A stretch of DNA of 64,000 bases from Draconibacterium orientale. GTDB taxonomy: Bacteria; Bacteroidota; Bacteroidia; Bacteroidales; JAADGE01. Under the pieces are notes generated by a model. That model was not told the origin of the DNA, did no database searches, and worked only from the letters and a program-made list of their open reading frames with translations. This document shows, piece by piece, positions 12,758-30,211 of the stretch (position 1 is the first letter of the stretch; the number at the start of each line of letters is the position of its first letter). Where the stretch lies: assembly GCA_020721645.1 (NCBI GenBank), contig DYMH01000002.1, positions 4,793-68,792 on the forward strand. The letters are read 5' to 3'. Position numbers and translations under genes: made by a program.

Positions 12758-15700
12758 ATGGAAAATCCCGTTCGCTATCAAACCAAAAATAATGTCAGAA
12801 TCGTAACAGCCGCTTCCCTTTTCGATGGGCATGATGCTTCTATCAACGTCATGCGACGCATTATTCAGGCATCAGGTGCCGAAGTTATTCACTTGGGACA
12901 CAACCGTTCGGTACAGGAAATTGTCGATTGTGCAATACAGGAAGATGCTCAGGCTGTTGCAATTACGTCATATCAAGGTGGGCATATCGAATTTTTCAAA
13001 TACATGTACGATTTGTTTAAAGAAAACGGTCGCCAAAACATCAAAATCTTCGGCGGGGGCGGAGGCGTAATTCTTCCTTCGGAAATCAAAGAATTGCAGG
13101 AATACGGCATTGCACGCATCTATTCGCCCGACGACGGTCGCCAAATGGGACTGCAAGGCATGATTAACGATTTGCTCCAAAAATCGGATTATTCCATTTC
13201 TGAAATTCCCGAAAACATTGTAAAAAAAGTTTCGGAAAAAGATGTAAAATCCATAGCCCGACTCATTTCTTGTGTCGAAAATATATCTGCTGAATCAGAT
13301 AATACGATGAGCGAAATTCGCGAAATAGCGAAACAAAAAAAAATCCCCGTTCTGGGCATCACCGGAACCGGTGGAGCAGGAAAATCCTCTTTGGTCGATG
13401 AATTGGTTCGTCGATATACCGAAAATGCACCCAAAAAATCAATTGCCGTCATCTCGGTAGATCCCACAAAACGCAAAACAGGAGGTGCATTGCTCGGCGA
13501 TCGCATTCGCATGAATGCCATCAGCCGCCCGAATGTTTATATGCGATCCCTTGCCACTCGGCAGGCAAATTTGGCGATGTCGCCATACGTAAAAGACGCT
13601 GTTGAAATAGTAAAAGCCGCCGGATACGATTTAGTCATTCTCGAAACCTCCGGAATCGGACAATCGGACACCGAAATCACCGAGCACAGCGATTTAACAT
13701 TGTACGTAATGACTCCCGAATACGGTGCAGCTACGCAATTGGAAAAGATTGATATGTTGGATTTTGCCGATTTAATTGCCATCAACAAATTCGACAAACG
13801 CGGTGCCGCAGATGCACTCCGTGATGTGAAAAAACAATATCAACGCAACAATGAACTGTTCGACATAGATTTGGATTCGATGCCGGTTTTCGGAACCGTT
13901 GCCTCACGTTTCAACGACCACGGAGTAAATGTTTTATATAAAGAAATCATCAAAAAACTTTCAGAAAAATTCGGTTTCCTGTTACCCGAAAAACAAGCCA
14001 TACAAGCCGAAATGTCGAGCGATGTGATTATAATTCCGCCGCAAAGAACACGTTATTTGTCCGAAATATCGGAAACCGTTCGAAAATATAACGATTGGAG
14101 CGAAAAACAGGCACAAATCGCAGATACACTTCAATCTCTTAAAAAAACATCGGATTTATTAAAAGACGAAACATCAAAATTACCTATTTCGAATTTAATC
14201 AAAGAAAAAGAAGTTTATTTGGACCATCAAAATAAAAAGATACTCGAAAATTGGTCGAATGTTGTAAAAAAATATACCGAACTTCAGTACATTTACCAAG
14301 TTCGCGGAAAAGATATTTGTGTCGATACATATACCGAAAGTCTTTCTCATCTTAAAATTCCGAAAATTTCCCTGCCCAAATACCGCAACGAAGGCGATAT
14401 TTTGAAATGGAATTTGCGTGAAAATGTTCCGGGTGAATTTCCTTATGCAGCCGGCGTTTTCCCCTTCAAAAGAGAAGGAGAGGACCCCACCCGTATGTTT
14501 GCCGGCGAAGGCGGTCCGGAACGCACAAACAAACGGTTTCACTATGTTTCGCTCGGACTTCCCGCAAAACGACTTTCAACGGCTTTCGATTCCGTAACAT
14601 TATACGGCGAAGATCCTGATATTCGTCCCGATATTTACGGAAAAATAGGAAATGCAGGCGTTTCCATAGCTTGTTTGGACGATGCCAAAAAACTCTATTC
14701 CGGGTTTGATTTATCCGATGCAAAAACTTCTGTATCGATGACCATTAACGGTCCCGCACCGATTATGACCGCGTATTTTATGAATGCCGCCATAGACCAG
14801 CAATGTGAAGTTTACATTCACAAAAACGGTTTGGAAAAAGAAATCGAACTGAAAATTGAAGAAATTTATAAGATAAAAGGAACGAAACGACCTCAATATC
14901 AAGGCGAATTGCCTGAAGGAAACAACGGATTGGGATTGATGTTGCTTGGTGTTACAGGAGATATGGTTTTGCCTTCGGAAATTTACGAAAATATCAAAAA
15001 AGAGACCATTTCGAAAGTTCGCGGAACTGTTCAGGCAGATATTTTGAAAGAAGACCAAGCCCAAAATACTTGCATTTATTCTATCGATTTTTCGCTCAAA
15101 CTCATGGGAGATATGCAAGAATATTTCATCACACATGATGTTGGGAATTTTTATTCTGTTTCAATATCAGGTTATCATATTGCAGAAGCCGGAGCGAATC
15201 CGATTTCGCAATTGGCTTTCACGCTGGCAAACGGTTTTACGTATGTAGAATATTACATTTCGCGCGGAATGAAGGTCGATGATTTTGCTCCGAATCTCTC
15301 GTTTTTCTTTTCCAACGGCATCGATCCCGAATATTCCGTGATGGGACGCGTGGCTCGCCTGATATGGGCAAAAGCCATGAAACTGAAATACAACGGAGAT
15401 GAGCGTTCGCAAAAACTGAAATATCACATTCAAACTTCCGGTCGCTCGCTGCATGCACAAGAGATTGATTTTAACGATATTCGTACTACTTTGCAAGCTT
15501 TGTATGCGATTTACGATAATTGCAATTCGTTGCACACCAATGCCTACGACGAAGCAATTACCACGCCCACCGAAGAATCGGTTCGCCGTGCGATGGCAAT
15601 TCAGTTGATTATTAACCATGAATTGGGTTTGGCAAAAAATCAAAATCCCTTACAAGGTTCGTTTATCATCGAAGAACTTACAGATTTGGTCGAAGAAGCA

Positions 15701-16120
15701 GTCCTTTCGGAATTTGACCGAATTACGGAGCGAGGCGGCGTTCCGGGGGCAATGGAAACGATGTATCAACGCGGAAAAATACAAGAAGAATCGCTGTATT
15801 ACGAAAACTTGAAACACACTGGGAAATTGCCGATTATGGGGGTGAACACCTTTTTATCTTCAACAGGTTCACCGACCGTAACGCCGGGAGAAGTGATTCG
15901 TGCCACGGAAGAAGAAAAAAGGTATCAAATTGAAATGTTGAAAGAATTACATCAATTTAACAAAGAAGAGAGTCGCGAAGCAGCAGAAATGCTGAAAACG
16001 GCAGCCATTCAAAACCAAAACGTTTTTGCAGAACTGATGAACGCTGCAAAAAAGTGTTCAATTGGTCAAATGACGGCAGCTTTGTTTCAGGTAGGCGGGC
16101 AATATAGAAGGAATATGTAA
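12758..16120 (+). CDS. icmF: Fused isobutyryl-CoA mutase (B12-binding domain + MeaB-like GTPase + mutase catalytic domain)
   Basis: 1120 aa. N-terminal DGHDASINV...IHLGHNRS (DxHxxG B12 motif), P-loop [13 protein letters not shown], and a C-terminal methylmalonyl-CoA-mutase-like TIM barrel. Confidence 0.85.
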
Positions 16121-16306
16121 GTTTTGAATTGTTAATGTTAAATTGACAATGGATAATGCAAAAAAATAATATTTCAAATGAATGGAGAATTGTTATCATT
16201 GCAGACCAACTCGTATTACAAATCCGGAAATCATTTCAAAAAATATTTTTAAGGGTGTCAAACTCTAAATTTGCATAATTTTGTATCTTTGAAATAAAAA
16301 AAATAA

Positions 16307-16942
16307 ATGGAAATTATCAGCGTAATAATTTGCGATGACCATGTGATATTCCGAAAAGGTTTGAGAACGATTTTAAATGAAATTTCGGATATTAAAGTTG
16401 TCGGAGAAGCTGCCAACGGAAAGGAACTTCTGGATTTATTGAAACAAACACCTGCCGATGTTATTTTAATGGATATAAAAATGCCTGTAATGGACGGTAT
16501 TGAAGCGACCCGAAAAGTTTCGGCTTCGTATCCTGAGAGTAAAATTATTGCATTAAGTATGCATGAAGAAATCGGCTATTTTAACTCGATGACAGAAGCC
16601 GGTGCATTGGGCTATCTTCTAAAAAAAACGAATAAAGACGAGCTTCGAAATGCCATTAATGCAGTGATGGACAATGAAAACTATTTCTCGGAAGAATTTA
16701 TGAGCAATATCAATAAAAATGCACTTCCGAAGAAAAAATCAAGTGTAAAACTCTCGGACCGCGAGTTGGAGGTGCTGGAATTGGTTTGTAAAGGATTTTC
16801 GAATCTCGAAATTTCACAACAACTTGGGCTTAGTCAGCGTACTGTGGACGGACATAAAGCACGGCTTTTTGAAAAAACAGGTGCCAAAAATGCTCCTAAT
16901 TTGGTGCTTTTTGCCGTGAAAAATGGATTTATAAGTATGTGA
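16307..16942 (+). CDS. NarL/LuxR-family response regulator (REC + HTH_LuxR)
   Basis: 211 aa. Receiver with DVILMDIKMP; C-terminal LSDRELEVLELVCKGFSNLEISQQLGLSQRTVDGHKARLFEK. Confidence 0.9.
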   Translation: MEIISVIICDDHVIFRKGLRTILNEISDIKVVGEAANGKELLDLLKQTPADVILMDIKMPVMDGIEATRKVSASYPESKIIALSMHEEIGYFNSMTEAGALGYLLKKTNKDELRNAINAVMDNENYFSEEFMSNINKNALPKKKSSVKLSDRELEVLELVCKGFSNLEISQQLGLSQRTVDGHKARLFEKTGAKNAPNLVLFAVKNGFISM

Positions 16943-16960
16943 CGATAGTTCTACATGAGT

Positions 16961-16986
16961 AATAATACCTGTATTATTTTTTTTTG
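16961..16986 (+). terminator. Weak AT-stem hairpin plus T-run after the LuxR-type regulator gene
   Basis: AATAATAC-CT-GTATTATT followed by a long T-run. The stem is almost entirely A/T (a single G-C pair), so stability is low. Confidence 0.35.
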
Positions 16987-17122
16987 ATTTATTTAGTTAT
17001 TTATTTTATTTCGCAACATCTTATATATCAAAATTATACTTCTTTCCTTTTTAAAAATATGAGAAAATAAAATTAGACATTGTTATGCGTAATATTCTTA
17101 TATTGAGCAATATGCTAAGAAT

Positions 17123-17149
17123 TAGGGTAGAAATACCCTATTTTTTTTT
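17123..17149 (+). terminator. Intrinsic terminator (orphan position)
   Basis: TAGGGTA-GAAA-TACCCTA followed by T9. It lies about 180 nt after the nearest upstream plus-strand stop codon. Confidence 0.55.
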
Positions 17150-17245
17150 GCGTTTTTCACTCTAAAAATAATTTCAAAGTCGCCGTACTTTTACACTATC
17201 AAAATGATGCAAAATCACACAATTCAAATTTAAAAAATAAACACC

Positions 17246-17743
17246 ATGGCAACTTCAAAAAAAATTTTATTAGTCGATGATGATATAGATGTTATTTCGG
17301 TAATGCAAACCCTTTTGGAACACGAAGGTTATACAATAATTACCGCATCGAATAAAAAAGAAGGTATTCGATTGGCAAAAGAGCAAAAACCGGATTTGGC
17401 TATTCTTGATGTCATGATGACTTCCCAATTTGAAGGTTTTGAGTTGGCAAAAGAGCTTTACGATGACGAAGATTTAAAACGTATGCCTAAATTATTCCAA
17501 ACCTCGGTCGAAGTGTTTTCGAGCAATAATGCCGATGTGGTGGAAATGGCAAAAGAATATCGCAAAGACCCGAGACATCGCGAATTGGAAGTGATTTTGG
17601 TGGAAGACCAAAAAACCGGTAAAGCCGGTGTAGATTATCGAAATGAAGAAGGTAAATGTATTTGGGTTTCTGTTGATGGTTTCATCAAAAAACCAGTCGA
17701 TTCCAAAAAATTGCTGCCCGCCGTTAATCGACTTTTAAAATAA
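17246..17743 (+). CDS. Stand-alone receiver-domain protein (CheY-like with short C-terminal extension)
   Basis: 165 aa. Motifs: KILLVDDD, PDLAILDVMM, FIKKPVD. No output domain. Confidence 0.85.
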   Translation: MATSKKILLVDDDIDVISVMQTLLEHEGYTIITASNKKEGIRLAKEQKPDLAILDVMMTSQFEGFELAKELYDDEDLKRMPKLFQTSVEVFSSNNADVVEMAKEYRKDPRHRELEVILVEDQKTGKAGVDYRNEEGKCIWVSVDGFIKKPVDSKKLLPAVNRLLK

Positions 17744-17818
17744 TGGACAATTGATAATTGACAATGGAAAATTGTTGATAAAAAAATAATTCTAATTATC
17801 AATTATTCATTATCCATT
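17742..17818. repeat. Word-based imperfect palindrome (AATGGACAATTGATAATTGACAATGG vs AATTATCAATTATTCATTATCCATT)
   Basis: The arms match at 20 of 25 positions when the right arm is reverse-complemented. It starts inside the stop codon of the receiver gene and contains the recurrent 11-mer TTGACAATGGA. Confidence 0.7.
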
Positions 17819-17950
17819 AAAAAATAAGGCTTTAGTTCTATTTCTATATTCGAGGGATTTTATCCCGCATAATGAGTGTTTGGTTTCAGAGAGTCGGGAG
17901 GAAAGTGTTCCGGCTCTTTGTTTAAAACTTTAAAAAGAAAATTAATACCA

Positions 17951-18415
17951 ATGGATTTAATTCAAAATATCGATACAATTATCGAAAAATATCCGAAATC
18001 GGAACGTCCGAATTTAATTCCGCTGCTTCAAGATTTGCAAGAACATCAAGGATTTTTGTCCGAAGAGGCAATGGTAAAAGTGGGCAAACATTTGGCTGTT
18101 CCGGTAAGCAACATCTACGGTGTGGCTACTTTTTACAATCAGTTCAAATTTGAGCCGTCTGGGAAATATCATATCAAGGTTTGTCGCGGAACGGCTTGTC
18201 ATGTTTTGGGATCTTCAACGGTTTTGGTTGAATTGGAAAAACAATTGAAAATTAAAGCCGGCAGCACTTCTCGCGATAAAATGTTCAGCCTCGAAGTCGT
18301 TGCCTGTATCGGAGCCTGCGGATTGGCTCCCGTTATCAGTGTTAATGATACTTTTCATGCAAAAGTCAGTGCAGCTTCAATCAAGGAAATTATCGAAAGT
18401 TACAAAAATATGTAA
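17951..18415 (+). CDS. hydC: [FeFe] hydrogenase small diaphorase subunit, NuoE/HndA-like [2Fe-2S] thioredoxin-like ferredoxin
   Basis: Motifs: LIPLLQDLQEHQGFLS, CRGTACHV, ACIGACGLAP. The ATG at 17951 is preferred over the GTG at 17876 in the ORF track, because the extension has no homology-like content and covers leader hairpins. Confidence 0.85.
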   Translation: MDLIQNIDTIIEKYPKSERPNLIPLLQDLQEHQGFLSEEAMVKVGKHLAVPVSNIYGVATFYNQFKFEPSGKYHIKVCRGTACHVLGSSTVLVELEKQLKIKAGSTSRDKMFSLEVVACIGACGLAPVISVNDTFHAKVSAASIKEIIESYKNM

Positions 18416-18477
18416 GACGCAAAAAAATATCTAACAACTCATTCATAATTCATAATTTATAATTCATAATTTCTAAA

Positions 18478-20403
18478 ATGATGTTAGCAACCGATATAAA
18501 ACCACTTTTAAAAAATTTCAACGAATACAAAACGGGGAAATCGGAATTAAAAGCAGAGTTTAAAGAAAAAAATCCGACAAAACCTGTTATTTACGTTGGA
18601 GCCGGAACCTGCGGATTGGCAGCCGGAGCAGACAAAACTCTGGCAAAAGTTCGCGAATATTTAAAAAATAAAAACATAGAAGCCGATGTAACCGAAACCG
18701 GATGCATCGGTTTGTGTTCTTCCGAACCATTGATGGACGTTCAAATTCCGGGTTTTAACCGAATTTCTTTCGAATTTGTAAGCGAAGACAAAGTTGAAGG
18801 AATTTTAGACCAAATTTTTGCCTTAAACACTCCAAAATCCAATATTTTGGCTCAATTCAGAAGCAAAGATTTCAGAATTTGGGAAAATGTTCAATTTTTA
18901 GACGAACATCCTTTTTTCAAACCGCAAATGAGATTTGTACTGAAAAATTGCGGAATTATCAATCCGGGAAGCATCGAAGAATATATTTTGCGAGGCGGAT
19001 ATGCGGCTCTTTTAAAAACATATTCCGATTATCAACCGGTTGATATTTGCGACATTATAGAAAAAAGCGGCTTACGCGGACGCGGCGGCGGTGGATTTCT
19101 CACCGGACGAAAATGGAAATTTGCTTTGGGAACCGAAAGCGATCATAAATACCTGATTTGCAATGCAGACGAAGGCGACCCCGGAGCATTTATGGACCGT
19201 GCCGTGATTGAAGGCGACCCGCACCGATTGATTGAAGGTATGGCAATTGCTGCCTACGCAATCGGAGCCGAAACCGGAATCGTATATATTCGTGCTGAAT
19301 ATCCGCTGGCTATCAAACGTTTGAAAGTTGCTCTGAAACAAGCAAAAGAAAACGGTTTGCTCGGCGATAATATTCTGGGAACAGGCAAAAAATTGGAAAT
19401 CAAAATAAAAATGGGTGCCGGTGCATTTGTTTGCGGCGAAGAAACCGCTATGATTCACAGCATCGAAGGAAAACGAGGAATGCCTCGTCCTCGCCCGCTT
19501 TTTCCGGCTGTCAGCGGATTGTTTGGGAAACCTACTGTTATTAATAACGTGGAAACTTTGGCAAACGTACCGTACATTCTTGAAAATGGTGCCGAATCGT
19601 TCAATTCTCTTGGAACCGAAAAAAGTAAAGGAACAAAAGTTTTTGCACTGTCCGGAAAAATTTCACTCACCGGTTTGGTCGAAATTCCGATGGGAACCAC
19701 CGTTCGCGAAGTGCTTTTCGGAATTGCCGGCGGCATAAAAAACGGAAAAAAATTCAAAGCCGTACAAATCGGCGGACCTTCCGGAGGGTGCATCACAGAG
19801 CAAAATCTGGATATTCAAATCGACTACGAATCACTGATTCAAGCAGGTGCCATGATGGGTTCCGGAGGTTTGGTGGTGATGGACGAAGACAATTGCATGG
19901 TCGATGTGGCAAAATTTTTCATGGATTTTATTCAACGCGAAAGCTGCGGAAAATGTATTCCGTGCCGAGAAGGAACAGCCCGAATGCTCGAAATTCTCGA
20001 AAACATCACCCACAAACCCGGCTCGGGCGAAAGCCACAGTGCTTTGGAGCGCATTAACGGTGTGATTCAACTCGAAAAACTCGGTCAGGTGATTAAAGAA
20101 ACATCGCTTTGCGGACTCGGACAAACGGCTCCAAATCCCGTTCTCAGCACCTTGCGTTGGTTTCGGCACGAATACGAGCAACATATTTTCGATCGTAAAT
20201 GCGCTGCCGGTGTATGCACCGAATTGCGTACTTTTAAAATTGATGTTGATAAATGTACCGGCTGCACCATTTGTGCCAAAAAATGCCCAACAGGAGCTAT
20301 TATCGGCGGGAAAAAAACACCGCATTTTATTATCGAAGAAAAATGTATCGCCTGCGGTGCCTGCGATGAAGCCTGTAAATTTGATGCAATTTTAATTTTT
20401 TAA
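18478..20403 (+). CDS. hydB: [FeFe] hydrogenase flavoprotein subunit, NuoF/HndC-like (FMN, NADH, Fe-S)
   Basis: 641 aa. N-terminal thioredoxin-like domain; SGLRGRGGGGFLTGRKW; CNADEGDPGAF; ESCGKCIPCREG; C-terminal 2x[4Fe-4S] (CTGCTICAKKCP, CIACGACDEAC). Confidence 0.9.
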   Translation: MMLATDIKPLLKNFNEYKTGKSELKAEFKEKNPTKPVIYVGAGTCGLAAGADKTLAKVREYLKNKNIEADVTETGCIGLCSSEPLMDVQIPGFNRISFEFVSEDKVEGILDQIFALNTPKSNILAQFRSKDFRIWENVQFLDEHPFFKPQMRFVLKNCGIINPGSIEEYILRGGYAALLKTYSDYQPVDICDIIEKSGLRGRGGGGFLTGRKWKFALGTESDHKYLICNADEGDPGAFMDRAVIEGDPHRLIEGMAIAAYAIGAETGIVYIRAEYPLAIKRLKVALKQAKENGLLGDNILGTGKKLEIKIKMGAGAFVCGEETAMIHSIEGKRGMPRPRPLFPAVSGLFGKPTVINNVETLANVPYILENGAESFNSLGTEKSKGTKVFALSGKISLTGLVEIPMGTTVREVLFGIAGGIKNGKKFKAVQIGGPSGGCITEQNLDIQIDYESLIQAGAMMGSGGLVVMDEDNCMVDVAKFFMDFIQRESCGKCIPCREGTARMLEILENITHKPGSGESHSALERINGVIQLEKLGQVIKETSLCGLGQTAPNPVLSTLRWFRHEYEQHIFDRKCAAGVCTELRTFKIDVDKCTGCTICAKKCPTGAIIGGKKTPHFIIEEKCIACGACDEACKFDAILIF

Positions 20404-20407
20404 AATT

Positions 20408-20493
20408 CAGACACAAGATTCGAGATACAAGACACAAGATAATTGAAAATATTTAATTTTTTTCTTGATACTTGATACTAAATACTTGATATT
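20408..20493. repeat. Intercistronic AGACACAAG-family repeat plus partially complementary CTTGATA words
   Basis: cagacacaagattcgagatacaagacacaagat ... tcttgatacttgatactaaatacttgatatt. The left part is homologous to 24269-24294 and 38976-39006. Confidence 0.7.
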
Positions 20494-20505
20494 AAAAACT
20501 AAATC

Positions 20506-22230
20506 ATGAACTTCAATATCGAAATAAATAATAAAACGGTTGAAGCCGTACAAGGCGAAACTATTTTGGATACTTTAAAACGAAACGGCGTAAAAGTTCC
20601 CACTTTGTGTCATCTCAAAGGCATGTTGCCAACCGGAGCCTGCCGAATTTGTATCGTAGAAAACGAAACAACCGGAAAATTGATTCCTTCGTGCTCGCAA
20701 CCCGTGGAAACAGGAATGAAAATTCTCACACATTCGCCTCGTGTGAACGAATCGCGAAAAACGATTATCGAACTTTTGTTGTCGAATCACCCTGACGATT
20801 GTTTGTATTGTGTACGAAACAAGAATTGCGAATTGCAAGACTTGGCAGAAACATATCAAGTGCGTGAAAGACGCATCAGAGGCAAAAAAAACAAACATCA
20901 TTTGGATCTTTCCGGAACGTCAATTGTTCGCGATCCCGCCAAATGTATCCTGTGCGAGCGATGTGTGCGAGTGTGCGATGAAGTTATGGGAGTTTCGGCA
21001 ATCGAAATATTGTATCGAGGAAGTAATTCTGTTGTTGGAACAGCTTTCAACAAAGGATTAAATACATCGAGTTGCATTAATTGCGGTCAATGTATTATGG
21101 TTTGCCCAACGGGTGCTCTGAGCGAAAAAAGCCATTTCCCCGAATTAATTGAAGCTCTGAAAGATAAGAAAAAGAAAGTTGTGGTTCAATATGCTCCTTC
21201 GATTACGGTTTCTTTGGCTGAGGAATTTAATATGAAGCCGGGCGAAGACATTAACGGATTGTTAAATGCCGCTTTGCGAAAAATCGGTTTCGATAATGTT
21301 TTTGATACCACATTTACTGCCGATTTGACCATTATGGAAGAATCTGCCGAGTTGATACAACGCATAACGGAAAACAAAAATCTGCCGCTCATCACGAGTT
21401 GTTGCCCGGGCTGGGTGAAATATGCCGAAGAATTTGCTGATGATTTTATTCCGAATATTTCATCGTGTAAATCGCCCCAACAAATGATGGGAGCTGTAAT
21501 TAAATCATATTTTGCCCAACAAATCAATACAAAACCCGAAGAAATTTATTCGGTTTCGATAATGCCTTGCACGGCAAAGAAATTTGAAATGCAACGGGTT
21601 GAAATGAACAGAAACGGAATCAACGATGTTGATGCTGTTCTCACAACACGCGAAATATCGAAATTATTCAAACTTTTTGGTATCGACATAAAATCTTTAG
21701 AACCCGAAACCGCCGATTCTCCAATGGGAATCCGCAGTACGGCAGGAAAATTGTTTGCAAATACGGGAGGCGTGATGGAAGCTGCATTGCGAACAGCACA
21801 TTTCAAACTTACGGGAAAAGAATTGGTGAATTTCAAAATTCCCCAAGTTCGCGGTCTGGACGGAATTAAAGAAGCCAAAATGACTATTGCCGGAATAGAA
21901 GTGGGAGTAGCCGTGGTGAGCGGATTGGCAAATGCACAAAAATTATTGCAGGAAATTCGCAACGGACGAAAAGACCTTCATTTTATTGAAATTATGGCTT
22001 GCCCCGGAGGCTGTATCAGCGGAGGCGGACAACCAATCAACAGCGATGAATCGATACTCAGAAGCCGTATTAAGGCGATATATGCTATCGACCATCGAGA
22101 ATCGATAAAAGTATCGCACAAAAATCCGGAAATTATCGAAATTTATCAAAATTTCCTCGAAAAACCACTCAGTCATAAAAGCCACGAATTACTCCACACT
22201 CACTACGAAAAACGTGATGTACTTAAATAA
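20506..22230 (+). CDS. hydA: [FeFe] hydrogenase catalytic subunit (M3-type, group A; bifurcating-type by gene context)
   Basis: 574 aa. N-terminal 2Fe-2S (CHLKGMLPTGACRIC), HPDDCLYCVRNKNC, two Fer4 motifs. H-cluster motifs TSCCPGWV, MPCTAKKFE, EIMACPGGCISGGGQP. Confidence 0.92.
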   Translation: MNFNIEINNKTVEAVQGETILDTLKRNGVKVPTLCHLKGMLPTGACRICIVENETTGKLIPSCSQPVETGMKILTHSPRVNESRKTIIELLLSNHPDDCLYCVRNKNCELQDLAETYQVRERRIRGKKNKHHLDLSGTSIVRDPAKCILCERCVRVCDEVMGVSAIEILYRGSNSVVGTAFNKGLNTSSCINCGQCIMVCPTGALSEKSHFPELIEALKDKKKKVVVQYAPSITVSLAEEFNMKPGEDINGLLNAALRKIGFDNVFDTTFTADLTIMEESAELIQRITENKNLPLITSCCPGWVKYAEEFADDFIPNISSCKSPQQMMGAVIKSYFAQQINTKPEEIYSVSIMPCTAKKFEMQRVEMNRNGINDVDAVLTTREISKLFKLFGIDIKSLEPETADSPMGIRSTAGKLFANTGGVMEAALRTAHFKLTGKELVNFKIPQVRGLDGIKEAKMTIAGIEVGVAVVSGLANAQKLLQEIRNGRKDLHFIEIMACPGGCISGGGQPINSDESILRSRIKAIYAIDHRESIKVSHKNPEIIEIYQNFLEKPLSHKSHELLHTHYEKRDVLK

Positions 22231-22259
22231 TTGATAATTCATAATTCATAATTAATAAG

Positions 22260-24260
22260 GTGCCTGTTTACAACGATACATTTCCGCTTGTTTTTACCGT
22301 CAAAGGTCGATGCCGTGTGTGTTACACGTGCATCCGGGAATGTCCGGTGAAGGCGATAAAAATCATCAACGGACAAGCCGAAATCATTACCGAACGCTGT
22401 ATTGCCTGCGGAAACTGTGTAAGAGTTTGCAGTCAGGAGGCAAAGGCATTTGCAAAATCCATCGACCGAGTTTGGCATTTGCTCGAATCGGACGAAAAAA
22501 CGGCAGCGGTTATCGCACCTGCATTTCCCGCCGAATTTGACGAGTTGCCTGATTATCGAAATTTGGTAGGTGCACTTCGTTCTTTGGGATTCGATTATGT
22601 GATAGAAACCGCATTCGGTGCGGATATCGTGGGACGAGAATATTCCCGTTTGTTGAAGAAAAACACGGAAGGAACAGTCATTTCCTCCGATTGCCCGGCG
22701 ATTGTCAATTATATCACATATTATCACCCCGAACTTTCGGAAAAGCTTGCTCCAATTGATTCTCCGATTATGGCAGCTGTGAAAGTAGTGAAGAAAAAAT
22801 ACGGCGATAATGTAAAAATTGTGTTTATCGGTCCGTGTATTGCCAAGAAATTGGAATTGGAAGACCCCAATGAAGTTCTTACTTTTTCGGAATTGCGGGA
22901 AATGTTCGATATGCAGAAAATTGATATTTCACAATCAGAAATTTCGGAATTCGACGAACCTTTTGCCGGAAACGGAGCTGTTTTCCCGATTAGTCGAGGT
23001 TTATTAAGAAATTTGCGAAAACCGGAACATATTACCGAAAGTGATGTTATAGTAACTCACGGACATGTTAATTTTCGAGATGCAGTTGATGAATTTAGAG
23101 AGGGTGATGTTGATTGTAAATACATGGAACTCTTGTGTTGTAATGGGTGCATTATGGGACCCGGAATGACGAAAAAGGGACAACGTTTTAAAAAACGAAC
23201 ATTGATTACAAATTATGTTCGCGAAAAACTCAAAAAACTCGATAAACCCACCTGGCGAAAAGAAATGACTCAATATGAAGATATTGACTTCAGCCGAACA
23301 TTCGATGGTTACAAACATCAAACTAAACTGCAACTGAAAAAAGAAGAAATTCAGGAAGTTTTGTTGAAAATGGGGAAAACCAAGCCCGAAGATCATCTCA
23401 ATTGCGGAGCTTGCGGATATGCCACATGTTTGCTGCATGCCGAGGCAATTGTGGAAGGACTTGCCGAAACCGAAATGTGTTTGCCCTACACCATCGAAAA
23501 ATTGCACGAAACGGTTGAGAAAATGGACCTTACAAATAAAAAATTGTCATCGGCTCGTCAGGCTTTAAAACAATCGGAAAAATTGGCAGGAATGGGACAA
23601 CTTTCTGCCGGAATTGCACACGAACTAAACAATCCGCTCGGTGTTATTACAATGTACAGTAATTTGTTATTGGAAGAAGCAAATCCGGATTCGCAAATGT
23701 ATGCCGATTTGAAATTGATTGCCGAACAAGCCTGCCGATGTAAAAATATTGTCGGTGGATTGCTCAATTTTGCCAGAAAAAATCAGGTGAAAACAACAGA
23801 ATGCAATTTTACCGAATTTGTAAAAAGCAGCATTTCTTCAATTTTAAAACCTGATAATATCAGCGTTTTATTTGATTCGAAACTTACAAATCCGAAAGTA
23901 AATATCGACATCGAACAAATGATGCAAGTGCTTACGAATCTCGAAAAAAATGCAGTGGAAGCAATGTCCGACGGCGGCGAATTGATGATTCGTATTTCCG
24001 AAGAAGGCAACAGTGTGATTTTGGAAGTAGAAGACACCGGAACAGGAATATCGAAAGAAAATATGGACAAAATTTTCACGCCGTTTTTCACAACAAAAGA
24101 ATTCGGAAAAGGAACAGGGCTCGGACTTCCGCTGATTTACGGAATTATAAAAATGCACATGGGAAAAATTTCCGTTGAATCGAACGATAAACCCGAAAAC
24201 GGACCGACCGGAACAAAATTTATTATCAGATTACCTCGAAATTTTCAATTCAATACTTAA
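22260..24260 (+). CDS. hydS: HydS-like sensory [FeFe]-hydrogenase domain fused to a histidine kinase (Fer4 + H-domain-like + Cx2Cx4Cx16C Fe-S motif + HisKA + HATPase_c)
   Basis: 666 aa with a GTG start. CRVCYTCIRECP and CIACGNCVRVC; H-domain-like motifs SSDCPAIVNY, GPCIAKKLE, ELLCCNGCIMGPG aligning with the HydA motifs; CGACGYATC-x16-C; then H-box SAGIAHELNNPLG and N/G boxes (NLEKNAVEAM, DTGTGI, GKGTGLGLP). Confidence 0.85.
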   Translation: MPVYNDTFPLVFTVKGRCRVCYTCIRECPVKAIKIINGQAEIITERCIACGNCVRVCSQEAKAFAKSIDRVWHLLESDEKTAAVIAPAFPAEFDELPDYRNLVGALRSLGFDYVIETAFGADIVGREYSRLLKKNTEGTVISSDCPAIVNYITYYHPELSEKLAPIDSPIMAAVKVVKKKYGDNVKIVFIGPCIAKKLELEDPNEVLTFSELREMFDMQKIDISQSEISEFDEPFAGNGAVFPISRGLLRNLRKPEHITESDVIVTHGHVNFRDAVDEFREGDVDCKYMELLCCNGCIMGPGMTKKGQRFKKRTLITNYVREKLKKLDKPTWRKEMTQYEDIDFSRTFDGYKHQTKLQLKKEEIQEVLLKMGKTKPEDHLNCGACGYATCLLHAEAIVEGLAETEMCLPYTIEKLHETVEKMDLTNKKLSSARQALKQSEKLAGMGQLSAGIAHELNNPLGVITMYSNLLLEEANPDSQMYADLKLIAEQACRCKNIVGGLLNFARKNQVKTTECNFTEFVKSSISSILKPDNISVLFDSKLTNPKVNIDIEQMMQVLTNLEKNAVEAMSDGGELMIRISEEGNSVILEVEDTGTGISKENMDKIFTPFFTTKEFGKGTGLGLPLIYGIIKMHMGKISVESNDKPENGPTGTKFIIRLPRNFQFNT

Positions 24261-24353
24261 CAGAGAAAAGACATAAGATTTTAGACACAAGACAATAAAT
24301 CTGTTTAACAATTTATTATTCTAATTACTAACTACTAATTACTAAATACGACA
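24261..24353 (+). repeat. Composite intercistronic cassette, copy A (AGACA[T/C]AAG words, small hairpin, TAATTACTAA-type words)
   Basis: Both ends are homologous to 38974-39076. aaagacataagattttagacacaagaca matches acagacacaagattttagacacaagaca, and attctaattactaactactaattactaa matches attctaaattctaactactaattcctaa. Confidence 0.8.
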
Positions 24354-24749
24354 ATGACTGAAATTAAAAAAAATATTCTCATCGTTGATGACGACCCCGA
24401 TTCTCTCGCTTTGATGACAATGCACGTTGAACGATTTGGTTTTAATGCCATTACGGCAGACAGCCAAAAAGCCGGCGAAGCAATTCTCGAAAAACAAAAA
24501 CCCGATTTAGCTATTCTGGATTTGATGATGGAAAAAGAAGACAGCGGTTTTATATTAGCATATCGCTTAAAACAAAAATATCCTGACGTTCCTGTTATTA
24601 TCGCAACAGCCGTTACAAAAGAAACCGGAATGGTTTTCGGAATCAATTACGAAGAAGAACGAAAATGGATTAAAGCCGATTTGTATCTCGAAAAAAATAT
24701 TCGTCCCGACCAATTACAGCGCGAAATTAACAGACTTTTGAAGCTGTAA
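24354..24749 (+). CDS. Stand-alone receiver-domain protein (CheY-like)
   Basis: 131 aa. Motifs: NILIVDDDPD, PDLAILDLMM, LEKNIRP. No output domain. Confidence 0.9.
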   Translation: MTEIKKNILIVDDDPDSLALMTMHVERFGFNAITADSQKAGEAILEKQKPDLAILDLMMEKEDSGFILAYRLKQKYPDVPVIIATAVTKETGMVFGINYEEERKWIKADLYLEKNIRPDQLQREINRLLKL

Positions 24750-24771
24750 AAAGTATAATGACGCAAGTATC

Positions 24772-24810
24772 AAGACACAAGAATGGGAAATGACTCATTT
24801 CTTGTGTCTT
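24772..24810 (+). promoter_or_regulatory. Perfect 12-bp intercistronic stem-loop of the AGACACAAG family
   Basis: AAGACACAAGAA (24772-24783) pairs with TTCTTGTGTCTT (24799-24810), with a 15-nt loop. The ORF-track ATG at 24783 begins at the last base of the left stem arm and runs into the loop. Confidence 0.75.
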
Positions 24811-24836
24811 TGGACTCACATCTCATATCAAAACAC

Positions 24837-25952
24837 ATGATACCATTAAAAGTTTTAGCGGTTGACGATGAATTTGGCATTCGCAAAGGCATCAGTCGAA
24901 TTTTAAACAATTTCAATGTCGATTTTCCGTTTTTGGAAGAAGCTTTTAATTACGAAATTATCGAAGTTGAAACCGGCGAATCGGCTCTCGAAATTCTAAA
25001 TTCAGAAAAAATTGATATTGTTTTGTTAGACAATCAATTGCCCGGTATTCACGGAACCGAAGTTTTGCAACAAATCAACGAACGCGGCTACGATTGTGCT
25101 GTGATGATGATAACGTCATACGCTTCACTTGAATTGGCTGTTGAAGCCACAAATAAAGGAGCTTTCAATTTTGTGCCGAAACCTTTTACGCCGCAAGAAT
25201 TGCGCGATGCGATTGAAAGCATCACCAAACACTTGTATTTGAAGCGAATGACACGCAAAATGAACGAGGAAGGACGCGAAACTCGTTTCCAATTTCTTTC
25301 GGTTCTTTCGCACGAGTTAAAATCGCCGATTAACGCAGTGGAAGGCTATTTGCGAATTATGCAGGACAAACAATTGGGCGAAAATATCGACGATTATCAA
25401 ACAATGCTCGGTCGTTCTTTGGAGCGCCTCAAAGGAATGCGCGGATTGATTTTCGATTTGCTTGATTTTACGCGGATTGAAAGCGGAAAGAAGAAACGCA
25501 ATTTACAAAAAATCGATATTATTAAAATAGCAAAAACATCGCTTGAATCAATAGAACCGGCGGCTTTGCAGAAAAATACAGAATTTATTTGCAATTTGCC
25601 CGAAGAATTGGAGATGACAGGCGACAGCGGCGAATTTGAGATTATTTTCAATAATTTGCTTTCCAATGCCGTGAAATACAACGTGAACAACGGGAAAGTG
25701 TTTTTTGTTATCAGCAACAATTCCGGGAAAATTCGCATTTCGGTAAAAGACACCGGAATAGGCATGAGTGCCGACGAAACCGCAGCATTGTTTAAAGATT
25801 TTGTTCGCATCAAAAACGAAAAAACAAAAAACATCACCGGCAGTGGCTTAGGTTTGTCGATTATGAAAAAAATCGTTGAAATGTACGGCGGAACAATTCA
25901 TGTGCTGAGCGAACCGGAAAAAGGAACAGAATTTATTGTTGATTTTCCGTAA
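24837..25952 (+). CDS. Hybrid receiver - histidine kinase (REC + HisKA + HATPase_c)
   Basis: Receiver (LKVLAVDDE, IDIVLLDNQLPG, FVPKPF), H-box LSVLSHELKSPIN, ATPase boxes (NLLSNAVKYN, DTGIGM, GSGLGLS). The ATG at 24837 is preferred over 24783 because of the hairpin. Confidence 0.85.
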   Translation: MIPLKVLAVDDEFGIRKGISRILNNFNVDFPFLEEAFNYEIIEVETGESALEILNSEKIDIVLLDNQLPGIHGTEVLQQINERGYDCAVMMITSYASLELAVEATNKGAFNFVPKPFTPQELRDAIESITKHLYLKRMTRKMNEEGRETRFQFLSVLSHELKSPINAVEGYLRIMQDKQLGENIDDYQTMLGRSLERLKGMRGLIFDLLDFTRIESGKKKRNLQKIDIIKIAKTSLESIEPAALQKNTEFICNLPEELEMTGDSGEFEIIFNNLLSNAVKYNVNNGKVFFVISNNSGKIRISVKDTGIGMSADETAALFKDFVRIKNEKTKNITGSGLGLSIMKKIVEMYGGTIHVLSEPEKGTEFIVDFP

Positions 25953-28055
25953 TTATATCTCATCTTTTATTGTTATCATTACAAACATTCCTTTTCCGTC
26001 TTCGCTGTTAAAATCGCATTTTCCGCGAATTGTTTTTATTTTATTGGCAATATTTCCCAAGCCCATTCCTGCTCCTTCCCGCATCATTTTGTCGATGTCG
26101 AAACCAACGCCGTCATCGCGATAATAAAGAATAATCAAGTGATTCACGTTTTTAAGTTCTATTGTTATTTTGGAAGCTTGCGAATGTTTTATTGTATTGT
26201 TAATTAATTCTTTAATTGATTGATAGAGAATAGTTTCCACAATATCATGCTTTTCGCGTATATAATTTTCGGTATTCAGCTCAATTTCAACCGATTTGCT
26301 GTTTTGTACAAATGCAATAAAATCGTTTACGGCAGCAGCCAAACCGAAATCCTGCAAATTTCCCGGAGCAATATTTTTTGAAATTTGCTTGGTTGTTTTT
26401 ATGGCTTCATCGACTAATTCATCGATATTTTGTGCAATTTCCGTAATGCTGATTTTGTTGAAATCTCCTTTTTTCAATAAATCGCTGTACAACTTTGCTG
26501 TTGAGAGAATTGGTCCCAAATCGTCGTGCAAATCGCCGGCAAAACGTTTGCGTTCCTTATCTTCTGTTTCAATAATTGCCGTTACAAGCTTTTTTTCCAA
26601 AGCTTTTCGTTCGGTAATATTTCGTGCAATGCTTAAAATTGCTTCTCTTCCCGCAAAATCAAACAAACGACTTTTCATTTCATATGAAATAACTGTTCCC
26701 GACTTGGAAATATGTTCAGTTTCGTAAACATAATAACCTTTTTCACGTACTGTTGTTAATATTTCATTAACTTCTTGTCTGTAAAATGATGTTTTAATAT
26801 CGTGAAGTCGCATTTTAAGTAATTCTTTTTTTGAATAGCCCAAACTTTCGCATGTTAATTTGTTCATTTCCACAAAATAACCGTTGAAATCAACAAGATA
26901 AATTTCATCGCCGCTGTTCTCGAAAAGCAATCGGAATTTTTTTTCGGATTCCTCAAGATCTGCCTGCGTTTTAATGAGTTTCTTATTATAATCGGCAATT
27001 TCCTTGATATATGAAATCAGTTTCCGGGTAGTGAAAAAATAGACAAAAACAGACAATAAAATGAAAATTAAAACTCCGAGAATTAACGAACGGATAATAA
27101 TGTTTTTGACCATTACAGATGCTGTTTCGTCTTCGTCAACTGTCGCAATCACATACAAATCGAAGTTTTCAAAATATGAAAAAGCTGTAATTTGTCGATT
27201 TTTAGGCGATTGATTTGTAGGTCTGAAACTCCCGTTTTTTTGATTCTGTATCATTTCAAAAATTTGCTGATTGAAAGACCCGTTTTTTGAATCGGAACTT
27301 TGAACAACAATTTCTCTTTTATTATTGATAATGAGAATATCACCGGGAATTTCTACTTTAAAATTTTTGATAATCTTTGAAATTTCAGATAAATCCTTTT
27401 CTTTTACTCCAACATAAAGCATTCCAATTATTTTGTCTTTATTAAAGATAGGTTCGTAAGCTGCAATATACCAGTCATTTACAACAAAAGCCCGACCAAA
27501 AAACGAATTCCCTTTTTCGATTGATTTCACAACTTCCGAACTGTTTGGAATGTAGGTATATAAAGCCCGTGAATCATCTGAATTTCTGACATTTGTCGAA
27601 ATTCTCACAAAACCGCTGTCAGTTTTTTGAAAAATGGTTGAAGTACAATGTGTAATTTCCTGAATTTTATCGACGGCGGAAAAGTCAGCAGAAATATCTT
27701 TTCCGCTTAAAAACCAGTAATTCAATGGTGATTGAATTGAAATTCCTGTATTTTGGTCGATAATTTGTTCGAGATTTTTTTGGGGTTGAATTTTCAAAGT
27801 CGAGGAATGGAAATAATCGTGAAAGAATCTCAAATTTTCCTTTACTTTCTCGGTTTTCAGACTTTTTTCACGCTCAAAAATACCAACTATTGTTTGAGTT
27901 TCAAGCAGTAAACTTTTTTCGCTTGCTTCAAAAACCGTTTGTTTCGATGTTTGAACCGATTGAAAGGTTATGGCAAAAACCGAAGCCGCAATACCGATAG
28001 CCAGCGGAGAAAAAATTTTCAATCGAATAAGTCGTCGCGGATATTTTAGTTTCAT
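25953..28055 (-). CDS. Membrane sensor histidine kinase (Cache-like periplasmic domain + PAS + HisKA_3 + HATPase_c), NarX/LiaS-type
   Basis: 700 aa. TM - about 290-aa extracytoplasmic domain - TM; PAS region (FRLLFENSGDEIYLVD); H-box FAGDLHDDLGPILS typical of HisKA_3; C-terminal ATPase (DDGVGFD, GMGLGNI). Confidence 0.85.
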   Translation of the reverse strand: MKLKYPRRLIRLKIFSPLAIGIAASVFAITFQSVQTSKQTVFEASEKSLLLETQTIVGIFEREKSLKTEKVKENLRFFHDYFHSSTLKIQPQKNLEQIIDQNTGISIQSPLNYWFLSGKDISADFSAVDKIQEITHCTSTIFQKTDSGFVRISTNVRNSDDSRALYTYIPNSSEVVKSIEKGNSFFGRAFVVNDWYIAAYEPIFNKDKIIGMLYVGVKEKDLSEISKIIKNFKVEIPGDILIINNKREIVVQSSDSKNGSFNQQIFEMIQNQKNGSFRPTNQSPKNRQITAFSYFENFDLYVIATVDEDETASVMVKNIIIRSLILGVLIFILLSVFVYFFTTRKLISYIKEIADYNKKLIKTQADLEESEKKFRLLFENSGDEIYLVDFNGYFVEMNKLTCESLGYSKKELLKMRLHDIKTSFYRQEVNEILTTVREKGYYVYETEHISKSGTVISYEMKSRLFDFAGREAILSIARNITERKALEKKLVTAIIETEDKERKRFAGDLHDDLGPILSTAKLYSDLLKKGDFNKISITEIAQNIDELVDEAIKTTKQISKNIAPGNLQDFGLAAAVNDFIAFVQNSKSVEIELNTENYIREKHDIVETILYQSIKELINNTIKHSQASKITIELKNVNHLIILYYRDDGVGFDIDKMMREGAGMGLGNIANKIKTIRGKCDFNSEDGKGMFVMITIKDEI

Positions 28056-28168
28056 AATGCAATGCTTGATACTGAAAAAATATTATCAAAAACCTCTCAA
28101 ATAACACAATAAATTACAGAACTTTAGTTTGAAGAAAGTTGAATGCTTTAAGCATTTTATAAAACCAA

Positions 28169-28867
28169 TTATACTATATGATAATAAAAGTAAATAGAAC
28201 CAAAAACTACTAATAAATTGCCCGACATGTGAACGGCAATAGCATAGGCATTGTTATTGTATTTTTCCTGGTAATATCCTGCTACTAATCCGATTATGGT
28301 GGTGAATATAATAGTTTTAAGCAAAAGTAAAAAACCAGCACCAGTCGTTATTAAAATCAAATGTGATGATCCAAACATGATAGCACTGATTATAACAGGA
28401 AAGCAAATTTTTCTTACAAACAGCATTATTCCATATGCATTCATTGGTTTTAAAATGTTTAATAAAAAACCGCGAAATAAAATTTCTTCGACAACAGAAG
28501 CATAGATAAAAATGAATATAATTACTTCAAACGGTGTCATTTTTGTTATAATTTCCATTCCTTCAATCTTATTTCCGGAAATTATAATTATTAATGAAAT
28601 AGAGACATTTACAATAAAACTCGCACAGAAACCAAACACTATCGGCTTTAATAATTTCTTTAAATTGGGTAATGAAATTTTATAATCAACATGTTTTTTC
28701 AATATAAATAGTGTCAAAACAGATAATAATAGCATAGTCGAATACGTATAAAAAGCATTTCCTAAAAAATCAATATTCAAGTCTATCACACGACCAATAA
28801 TATTCGATAATAAAAATATTACAATTGCAAGTGTCATTCCATAAATAATTTGTTCGAAATTTTTCAT
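28169..28867 (-). CDS. CPBP-family intramembrane glutamic endopeptidase (CAAX protease-like)
   Basis: 232 aa and polytopic. Motifs: EEILFRGFLLN and FGSSHL. Confidence 0.75.
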   Translation of the reverse strand: MKNFEQIIYGMTLAIVIFLLSNIIGRVIDLNIDFLGNAFYTYSTMLLLSVLTLFILKKHVDYKISLPNLKKLLKPIVFGFCASFIVNVSISLIIIISGNKIEGMEIITKMTPFEVIIFIFIYASVVEEILFRGFLLNILKPMNAYGIMLFVRKICFPVIISAIMFGSSHLILITTGAGFLLLLKTIIFTTIIGLVAGYYQEKYNNNAYAIAVHMSGNLLVVFGSIYFYYHIV

Positions 28868-29065
28868 TCGTTAATAATTTGTTAAAAACTATCCAATACA
28901 TGATTTTTTTTCCAAAGTTAGTCAATTATCTATTTGTTGAAAAAAGTTCCCGGCTGAAAATTCCATTTTTGTTCCTAAATTATCTAAAGTTTCAAAACAA
29001 AAGTATTTATTTTAAATTTGAAAAAATAATGAAATCACATCCTCCTCACTCTTAATAAAAAAAAA

Positions 29066-30211
29066 ATGGAAAATTTCACGGCTTACAATCCTACAATGCT
29101 GCATTTCGGTAAAAACGTAACCGATAAATTGGGCGAAACAGCATCGCAATACGGAAAAACAGCTCTCTTGATTTTCGGAAATGGAAGTGTAATTGAAAAT
29201 GGCTATTATGATACGATTAAAAATCAACTCAAAAAAGCGAATATTAAAATTGCTGAATATTCAGGAATCAGACCCAATCCGCATATCGAAGACGTGGACA
29301 AAGCCTCTGAATTGTGCCGAAAAGAAAACGTCAATTTGATTGTTGCACTCGGTGGCGGAAGTGTAATTGACAGTGCCAAAGCCGTTTCGGTTTGTGCTCC
29401 CGAAAACCTGAAAGTTTGGGACGTAGTCAAAGGAAAATCCAAACCGACAAAATCTTTGCCGCTGATTGCTGTTTTGACATTGGCTGCAACAGGCACCGAA
29501 ATGAATCCGTTTGCAGTGGTTCAAAATCCCGAAACATCAGAAAAAATAGGCTTCGGCGGACCTTTAATGTATCCGAAACACTCGTTTCTCGACCCGCAAT
29601 TCACTTACAGTGTTCCGAAAAATTATACGGCTTACGGAATTGTCGATTTGATTGCCCACTCACTCGAAAATTTCTTCGGATACGGACACGCACCCCTCAG
29701 CGACCGATTTGTTGCATCAATCATCACCGAAGCAATGCACTACGGACCTTTGCTGTTGAGTGATTTGACAAATTACGATTACCGAGCTAATATCTTATGG
29801 CAATCGACCTGTGCTCTCAACGGAACAACTTTACACGGACGAGCGGGCGGCGATTGGGGCGTTCACGATTTGGGGCATTCGCTGTCTGTTCTTTTCGATA
29901 CGCCGCACGGTGCAACGCTTTCCGTTGCCTACATCGCATGGTTTAAATGGTTGAAAACAAAAGACAACAAACGTTTAGCCGATTTATCTAAATTGTTGTT
30001 TAACACTGAAAACACTGATGTTTTAATCGAAAAATTCGAGTCATTTTTTAAATCAATAGAATGCCCTGTTCGTTTGGCGGAAGTCGGCATCGAAATTGAT
30101 AAAAAACAAATGATATTTGATACTTTCACAAAAAACAATGTTACCGGAACGATGTATAAAATGAACGAGGCAGACAGAATGTTTCTGTTGGAAAATATGT
30201 ATTCACTGTAA
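29066..30211 (+). CDS. Iron-containing (group III) alcohol dehydrogenase, butanol dehydrogenase/YqhD-like
   Basis: 381 aa. Motifs: LIVALGGGSVIDSAK, LTLAATGTEMN, histidine-rich metal site (HDLGHSLS...PHGA). Confidence 0.85.
   Translation: MENFTAYNPTMLHFGKNVTDKLGETASQYGKTALLIFGNGSVIENGYYDTIKNQLKKANIKIAEYSGIRPNPHIEDVDKASELCRKENVNLIVALGGGSVIDSAKAVSVCAPENLKVWDVVKGKSKPTKSLPLIAVLTLAATGTEMNPFAVVQNPETSEKIGFGGPLMYPKHSFLDPQFTYSVPKNYTAYGIVDLIAHSLENFFGYGHAPLSDRFVASIITEAMHYGPLLLSDLTNYDYRANILWQSTCALNGTTLHGRAGGDWGVHDLGHSLSVLFDTPHGATLSVAYIAWFKWLKTKDNKRLADLSKLLFNTENTDVLIEKFESFFKSIECPVRLAEVGIEIDKKQMIFDTFTKNNVTGTMYKMNEADRMFLLENMYSL

Follow-up and report, generated by a model that had tools for sequence, protein, structure and literature searches.

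The HydDB database of Sondergaard, Pedersen and Greening (2016, PMC5037454) contains a group C1 of [FeFe] hydrogenases described as 'histidine kinase-linked (putative)', a class that is delimited by sequence clustering only. A C1 enzyme close to the bifurcating Hnd hydrogenase has been reported in the Bacteroidales isolate Petrimonas mucosa (PMC7768429). In Hydrogenedentota, 21 of 53 C1 genes lie by a group A3 bifurcating hydrogenase, and a HATPase_c domain was found (PMC11406978). As late as 2026, sensory [FeFe] hydrogenases had no identified signalling partner (PMC13104023). Here, we analyzed a stretch of 64,000 nucleotides from Draconibacterium orientale (contig DYMH01000002.1, positions 4,793 to 68,792; hereafter the window), in which the hydrogenase operon hydCBA is followed by hydS::HK, a gene whose product joins a sensory-type [FeFe] hydrogenase to a histidine kinase, and by genes for a stand-alone receiver (REC131) and for a kinase with its own receiver (REC::HK); another stand-alone receiver gene (REC165) precedes hydCBA. 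On balance, we consider it probable that the hydCBA operon carries in HydS::HK a cytoplasmic H2 sensor, which would act through a kinase-to-kinase cascade with stand-alone receivers.

By its domain architecture, HydS::HK matches group C1; common to both are a sensory-type H-domain with a histidine kinase and a place beside a group A3 bifurcating hydrogenase. However, H-cluster motifs were hardly found in the C1 proteins of Hydrogenedentota (PMC11406978), whereas HydS::HK has all the ligands. The locus is a further member of an already catalogued sensor type, ordinary for its family, and is not a new system. In the literature searched, we found no description of conserved REC-only and REC::HK partners of a C1-type fusion, of a fixed 47-residue linker or an invariant Asp at the proton-relay position, or of fused-kinase and PAS/PP2C-type sensors at one hydCBA operon. 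The experimental value lies in the HydS::HK family, and this window adds nothing unique to it. The kinase fusion and the neighbouring partner genes reduce the question of H2 sensing to standard phosphotransfer assays, and given the spread of the family, the result would bear on H2 cross-feeding, methanogenesis and gut gas metabolism.

TmHydS (group C) and the HydS of Ruminococcus albus share with HydS::HK two N-terminal [4Fe-4S] clusters, the Cx2Cx4Cx16C motif, linkage to a bifurcating hydrogenase, and an H-domain in which Met353 is replaced by Gly and the relay Cys is lost. However, both contain a PAS domain (M2f architecture), which is missing from HydS::HK. The relay position is occupied by Ala in TmHydS, as in TamHydS, whereas it is Asp in HydS::HK. 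R. albus HydS has an adjacent PP2C phosphatase; the output of HydS::HK would be His-Asp phosphotransfer and not a Ser/Thr phosphatase.

A common logic, in which a low-turnover hydrogenase acts through a histidine kinase on hydrogenase genes, is found in HoxBC-HoxJ-HoxA of Cupriavidus necator and HupUV-HupT-HupR of Rhodobacter capsulatus. In these [NiFe] systems, the sensor protein is distinct from the kinase protein, and signalling ends in a sigma-54 activator of the NtrC type. However, their metal site and protein family are unrelated to those of HydS::HK, which is a fusion and has no NtrC-type regulator or sigma-54 promoter near its operon. No sigma-54 activator domain was found in the 12 genes scanned (12758-30211), and matches to the sigma-54 promoter (TGGCAC-N5-TTGC) were no more frequent than by chance and did not lie upstream of the operon. 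Cascades from a kinase to a REC-kinase are also known, in CheA3-CheS3-CheY3 of Rhodospirillum centenum, LvrA/LvrB of Leptospira and RedCDEF of Myxococcus. They have in common with the present locus a kinase whose only input is a receiver, stand-alone receivers, and a cluster without a DNA-binding domain. This likeness is at the level of generic two-component domains, and here an H-cluster domain provides the input in place of a chemotaxis-type or membrane sensor.

The HydS::HK fusion and the genes of its operon

We scanned one genome per species for relatives of HydS::HK and confirmed 574 of them, nearly all from Bacteroidota and anoxic habitats. Synteny was analyzed on the best 80 loci, which come almost entirely from metagenome-assembled genomes of Bacteroidota; synteny counts over fewer than 80 loci include only those with enough flank.

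The hydS::HK gene (22260-24260, + strand) has Pfam matches to Fer4, Fe_hyd_lg_C, FeS (PF04060), HisKA and HATPase_c. All on the + strand, the two [4Fe-4S] clusters (Fer4 at residues 16-60) are encoded at nucleotides 22305-22439, the H-domain at 22497-23162, and the Cx2Cx4Cx16C cluster (C382, C385, C390 and C407, with the PF04060 match) at 23397-23486. A helical linker then leads to HisKA with His454 (23595-23783) and HATPase_c (23907-24239). The H-cluster ligands Cys145, 193, 293/294 and 297 and the CN-binding Lys196 are invariant or nearly so in the orthologues, and the four cysteines of Cx2Cx4Cx16C, a motif that is typical of the sensory groups C and D, are invariant. The L1 motif is SSDCP in at least 90% of the family, with Asp144 invariant, and L2 is GPCxAKK. 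At the proton-relay positions, Cys299 is replaced by Asp144 and Met353 by Gly191, and the remaining residues of the group A proton pathway are absent from HydS::HK. The kept H-cluster Cys residues, the loss of the relay Cys and Met353, and the presence of Cx2Cx4Cx16C support an earlier reading of the window, made without database searches (the sequence-only reading), which had designated this gene hydS::HK.

Pfam gave no match to a PAS domain in HydS::HK, and HisKA and HATPase_c come directly after the FeS motif. The kinase core is NtrB/ZraS-like (the nearest solved kinases are ZraS, KinB, CckA, ThkA and LvrB), and the orthologues show no variation in His454 or in the N, G1, F and G2 boxes. 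The distance from Cys407 to His454 is 47 residues in 79/79 orthologues; this fixed spacing fits a rigid mechanical coupling between the two. The top 120 database homologues and 80/80 loci all have hydrogenase and kinase within a single polypeptide, and the Joint Genome Institute (JGI) annotation of HydS::HK homologues is likewise a hydrogenase/NtrB-type kinase fusion. The nearest genome-derived HydS::HK is only 63% identical. The identity of the relatives, together with a type IX secretion system (T9SS) sorting domain encoded elsewhere in the window, assigns this uncultured organism to the Bacteroidales.

The open reading frames and the Pfam matches agree with the gene order of the sequence-only reading, REC165-hydC-hydB-hydA-hydS::HK-REC131-REC::HK followed by a convergent Cache kinase. 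They agree also with its statement that no DNA-binding output lies between 17246 and 28055: at E ≤ 0.01, Pfam found neither a helix-turn-helix (HTH) nor another output domain there, nor did any of the encoded proteins match Hpt. The hydrogenase genes themselves, all on the + strand, are hydC (17876-18415; 2Fe-2S_thioredx, a HydC/NuoE-like [2Fe-2S] subunit), hydB (18478-20403; Complex1_51K, NADH_4Fe-4S and two Fer4) and hydA (20506-22230; Fer2_4, NADH-G_4Fe-4S_3, Fer4, Fe_hyd_lg_C and Fe_hyd_SSU). The start of hydC is probably near 17951, about 75 nucleotides past the GTG at 17876, the family median being 156 amino acids. The H-cluster motifs of HydA are canonical (PLITSCCPGW for L1, MPCTAKKFE for L2 and EIMACPGGCISGGG for L3, with MACPGGC), and HydA scores 820 bits against the NCBIfam model 'NADH-dependent [FeFe] hydrogenase, group A6', whose cut-off is 765. 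HydB, a NuoF-like flavin mononucleotide (FMN)/NADH subunit, begins with a 2Fe-2S-like domain and ends in a 2x[4Fe-4S] domain. Because canonical HydA motifs occur together with a NuoF-like HydB and a NuoE-like HydC, hydCBA is, judged by sequence, the trimeric NADH/ferredoxin-dependent HydABC of group A3, and the operon assignment of the sequence-only reading is upheld. By the same features, HydABC is predicted to be of the confurcating or bifurcating type; look-alikes of the trimeric enzyme without bifurcation exist.

REC165 (17246-17743, + strand; 165 amino acids) and REC131 (24354-24749, + strand; 131 amino acids) match Response_reg only and are paralogues. The receiver set of REC165 is complete (D11-13, D55, T86 and K149-P150). 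The protein has an insertion of about 40 residues between beta4 and beta5, because of which the Pfam match is limited to residues 7-86. In its AlphaFold model (predicted local distance difference test, pLDDT, 92), an ordinary receiver carries an extra strand, a helix and a three-stranded beta-meander before beta5, and the insertion sits on the alpha4-beta5 side, which is the usual effector-binding face. A Foldseek search with this model returned generic receivers only (RR468, DivK, FrzS and Spo0F; query-normalised TM-score about 0.6), with the insertion unmatched. REC131 has the canonical D11-13, D56, T85 and K113.

REC::HK (24783-25952, + strand) matches Response_reg, HisKA and HATPase_c, and the receiver is its sole input domain. 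The receiver residues are D28/29, D83, T111 and K133, and the kinase has His176 with intact H, N, G1, F and G2 boxes. Its start is most likely at 24837 (371 amino acids) rather than at 24783, because 17 N-terminal residues are missing in 74 orthologues and JGI calls a protein of 371 amino acids on the identical contig. The Asp-Asp-Asp-Thr-Lys set is intact in all three receivers, and the kinase core of REC::HK is complete; therefore, all components are predicted to be competent for phosphotransfer.

Conservation of the operon in relatives

The sequence-only reading had made its case depend on synteny of the signalling genes with hydCBA in relatives, and this synteny was found on both sides of hydS::HK. 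REC131 and REC::HK lie directly downstream of it in 72/74 loci, the two exceptions being only permuted in order, and hydCBA lies directly upstream in 69/71 loci. The median intergenic gaps in these operons are 17-31 bp. Because the same arrangement occurs in about 70 independent species-level genomes, the order of the block is far beyond chance. A JGI contig of identical sequence has the same arrangement, including the Cache kinase tail to tail with REC::HK. In relatives, maturase genes follow 3' of REC::HK (hydG in 41 loci, hydF in 26 and hydE in 28), and thus the signalling genes are embedded between structural and maturase genes. A search of the 64-kb window for hydE, hydF, hydG, Rex and a PP2C phosphatase found none of them.

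For the reverse test, metagenome contigs were scanned with the REC::HK alignment, and homologues with at least 40% identity and enough upstream flank were considered. Among these, 27/28 sit behind HydS::HK, and REC::HK homologues at 36% identity or less occur in unrelated contexts. Taken together, the forward and reverse results show that HydS::HK, REC131 and REC::HK form a dedicated operon module that is linked in both directions.

Only hydS::HK, REC131 and REC::HK are universally conserved among the signalling genes. REC165 was found in 42/69 loci, all in one clade, where it is the first gene of the operon. In a second clade, REC165 is replaced upstream by a divergently transcribed PAS-type HydS and a SpoIIE-family (PP2C-type) phosphatase, and this PAS-type paralogue does give a PAS match in Pfam. 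The pair of PAS-type HydS and a 394-amino-acid SpoIIE-family phosphatase was seen at L012:3765-5642 (- strand) and in 21 other loci (e.g., L020, L022, L029 and L040). The hydCBA genes of the second clade are accordingly flanked by two different sensory hydrogenases, the PAS-type upstream and HydS::HK downstream. The PAS-type HydS has TANCP as L1, and its L3 (FNIFYxxGC) contains one Cys, so that one H-cluster ligand is apparently missing. In six loci, a 2Fe-2S protein of 82 amino acids is encoded between the PAS-type HydS and hydC.

Proposed signal transfer from HydS::HK and alternative explanations

From the observed gene content, the integrity of domains and residues, and the two-way synteny, we infer the H2 signal, the direction of phosphotransfer and the target. 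The best-supported reading is that HydS::HK responds to H2, or at least to H2 and redox state. Binding or oxidation of H2 at the H-cluster would shift the redox or conformational state of the sensor module, and this change would tilt the kinase/phosphatase balance of HydS::HK. The most likely first target of HydS::HK would be the receiver of REC::HK, and REC::HK in turn would phosphorylate the stand-alone receivers, namely REC131 and, within the clade of this locus, REC165. They may be terminal outputs or phosphate sinks. Because the relatives share no DNA-binding output along with the core, signalling could end in a protein-protein interaction in the manner of CheY or DivK, or could proceed via an unlinked regulator.

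The link from HydS::HK to REC::HK is proposed as the core because these two vary least; the stand-alone receivers differ among loci both in number (0-2) and in position (L074, L075, L118, L124, L128, L129, L132 and L133). Entropy profiles showed strong conservation in helix 1 of the dimerization and histidine phosphotransfer (DHp) domain of HydS::HK and in alpha1 of the REC::HK receiver, but variability in alpha1 of REC131; this conservation of the contact helices gives the cascade slight support. Covariation between each kinase DHp and each receiver was estimated by mutual information with average product correction (APC) in 42-76 operons. The sole on-interface signal, a weak one, joins position 192 of the REC::HK DHp with positions 19 and 24 of REC131 alpha1, which also lends the cascade a little support.

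Several points weigh against a sensor cascade of this kind. The top covarying pairs lie mostly off the known interface, and covariation over about 75 operons does not single out the kinase partner of each receiver. The HydS::HK fusion family is known from sequence alone. An AlphaFold model of HydS::HK from a 12-sequence alignment reached a pLDDT of 64 with a low-confidence linker and was not used. Locus L127 (L127:1-5900, Ga0302249_1000148) has hydC-hydB-hydA-REC131-REC::HK and a REC165-like gene without HydS::HK, and thus the fused sensor can be missing where the receivers and REC::HK are kept. A variant of clostridial CpI with Asp in place of Cys299 reportedly retains activity, and because of this HydS::HK could turn over H2 faster than the Ala-containing sensors. 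The Asp at this position of CpI has been made and crystallised (structure 6GLZ). The maturase genes hydE, hydF and hydG are outside this window. In addition, proof of H2 sensing in vivo is still lacking for all sensory [FeFe] hydrogenases (PMC8924675), and a 2026 study on a group D enzyme argues against redox signalling via the C-terminal cluster.

Two further signalling genes border the operon. A LuxR/NarL-type regulator (16307-16942, + strand; Response_reg and GerE HTH) is encoded upstream of the block covered by the sequence-only reading (17246-28055), and a membrane-bound Cache kinase (25953-28055, - strand; Cache_3-Cache_2, PAS, HisKA_3 and HATPase_c) ends that block. The stop codons of REC::HK and the Cache kinase adjoin with 0 bp between them and without a terminator (25950-25955 of the window). 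In relatives, a Cache kinase and a LuxR-type regulator are adjacent to each other in 15/80 loci, in 12 of which they stand directly upstream of REC165. The regulator adjoins the operon in 27/80 loci, with a PAS-HisKA_3 kinase in the place of the Cache kinase in four. No member of the second clade has the regulator, although HydS::HK, REC131 and REC::HK are kept there. HisKA_3 kinases typically pair with NarL/LuxR regulators. Because of this habit and of the adjacency in relatives, the LuxR regulator and the Cache kinase are likely to be a separate cognate two-component system. The sequence-only reading had counted the Cache kinase as a third kinase of the relay; this part does not stand, since the kinase pairs with the LuxR regulator in those 15/80 loci instead. 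In relatives, the Cache kinase is directly upstream of and co-directional with the regulator, and hydG, hydF and hydE are behind REC::HK. Here, the Cache kinase occupies the relatives' hydGFE position and the regulator is kept upstream; a rearrangement in this genome thus split the kinase-regulator pair and displaced the maturase genes. The LuxR/Cache system is lineage-specific and probably feeds a second, extracellular signal into this operon.

A consensus scan found a terminator-like hairpin, TAGGGTAgaaaTACCCTA followed by a T-run, at 17123-17140 (+ strand). It probably ends the transcript of the LuxR regulator, and REC165-hydCBA would form a separate transcription unit. The hairpin was also considered as a NarL-type palindrome, which was dropped because the T-run favours a terminator. 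In 14 loci (L005:4649-5080 and 13 others), an extra stand-alone receiver of 128-184 amino acids (median 147) is encoded between the LuxR regulator and REC165. It is 40% identical to the receiver of the regulator, like a copy of it without the HTH. This extra receiver is missing in the window, where a 304-bp spacer is found instead.

A classical His-Asp-His-Asp relay would pass phosphate from HydS::HK to REC131, then to the His of REC::HK and finally to a DNA-binding regulator such as LuxR. The model for such a relay is KinA-Spo0F-Spo0B-Spo0A, and the four steps require an HPt or a Spo0B-type phosphotransferase. The stand-alone receiver is indeed flanked by two proteins that contain a His. Phosphorelays commonly end in LuxR/NarL-type regulators, and such a regulator is found by the operon in 27/80 loci, in 8 of these without a kinase beside it. 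However, the block has no HPt domain, and REC::HK has a full conserved ATP-binding domain and its own receiver, unlike the Spo0B or HPt shuttles. In relatives, the LuxR regulator comes with a HisKA_3 kinase of its own; it is missing from the second clade, and in the window it is parted from the operon by the terminator-like hairpin. Because there is no HPt/Spo0B-like shuttle and REC::HK is a true kinase, we regard the classical relay as quite unlikely. Thus, of the multi-step phosphorelay proposed by the sequence-only reading, the intact and syntenic phosphotransfer parts are retained, while the block lacks the HPt or Spo0B step and a dedicated terminal regulator, and REC::HK is, by its domains, a real kinase. 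It is likewise quite improbable that REC131 and REC165, phosphorylated by HydS::HK and REC::HK, dock on HydABC or its redox partners (REC165 with its conserved beta-meander) and gate electron confurcation by H2 partial pressure with no transcriptional control. If true, this would be a CheY-like post-translational product feedback on a metabolic enzyme.

Another explanation, which we consider unlikely, is that HydS::HK reports redox, namely the ferredoxin/NADH pool via its N-terminal [4Fe-4S] clusters, or that it is a slow catalytic or accessory subunit of HydABC reporting electron flux. The two ferredoxin-like clusters at the N-terminus would suit such a role, as would the invariant protonatable Asp at the relay position, which is Ala in TmHydS and TamHydS, and the predicted co-transcription of hydS::HK with hydA across a 30-bp gap. 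The NADH sensor Rex also points in this direction. Its gene is directly 3' of REC::HK in 24 loci of the second clade (e.g., L012:13535-14176), and about 29 relatives from both clades have Rex boxes (TTGTGAAnnnnnTAACAA, at most one mismatch) about 40-115 nucleotides before the first gene of the operon; thus redox control of the operon is the norm in relatives. No Rex operator was found upstream of the operon in the window. However, the complete H-cluster ligands and Lys196 are hard to explain without H2/H+ chemistry, and HydS::HK resembles the low-turnover sensory enzymes in having lost the other parts of the group A proton pathway. It could also be supposed that H2 is sensed and that the target is distal fermentation (the alcohol, lactate and succinate branches) via an unlinked response regulator. 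About 70 loci share no DNA-binding output within 10 kb, and an Fe-alcohol dehydrogenase is encoded 1 kb away in the window, though it is not conserved in relatives. The same has been proposed for R. albus HydS, where the H2 level regulates a cluster in which an alcohol dehydrogenase is encoded together with a ferredoxin-only hydrogenase and a sensory hydrogenase of the PAS type (PMC6776011). However, the placement between hydA and hydGFE and the two-way linkage to hydCBA speak for a function bound to HydABC, and a distal target and autoregulation can co-exist. We hold the distal target, taken as the explanation of this locus, to be very unlikely.

Regulatory DNA and neighbouring genes

A 25-nucleotide imperfect inverted repeat at 17741-17819 (+ strand) spans the stop codon of REC165 and the hydC leader. 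Its fold z-score is -1.4 here, and the REC165-hydC spacer has z < -3 in about one third of the relatives. The repeat could be a partial terminator or an operator, and the structure of the spacer may uncouple REC165 from the expression of hydCBA. An Rfam scan of the window found tRNAs only. The motif TTGCGTAAAAGTACTGG (core TGCGTAA) was observed about 150-175 nucleotides upstream of REC165 in 13 relatives, in two of which it lies nearer; loci with the motif include L011, L013, L017, L019, L031, L035, L051, L052 and L076. The window has only the TGCGTAA core, at about 17083-17089 and 163 nucleotides upstream of REC165. This motif could be a promoter element or an operator.

Directly upstream of the LuxR regulator lies a gene for an IcmF-like protein of 1120 amino acids (12758-16120, + strand), in which a B12-binding domain, a MeaB GTPase and a methylmalonyl-CoA-mutase are fused; this neighbour is not kept in relatives. 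Further away, a protein of 1510 amino acids (56953-61485, - strand) has an AMP-binding domain confined to its first ~610 residues, and the other ~900 residues have no Pfam match at E ≤ 1e-5.

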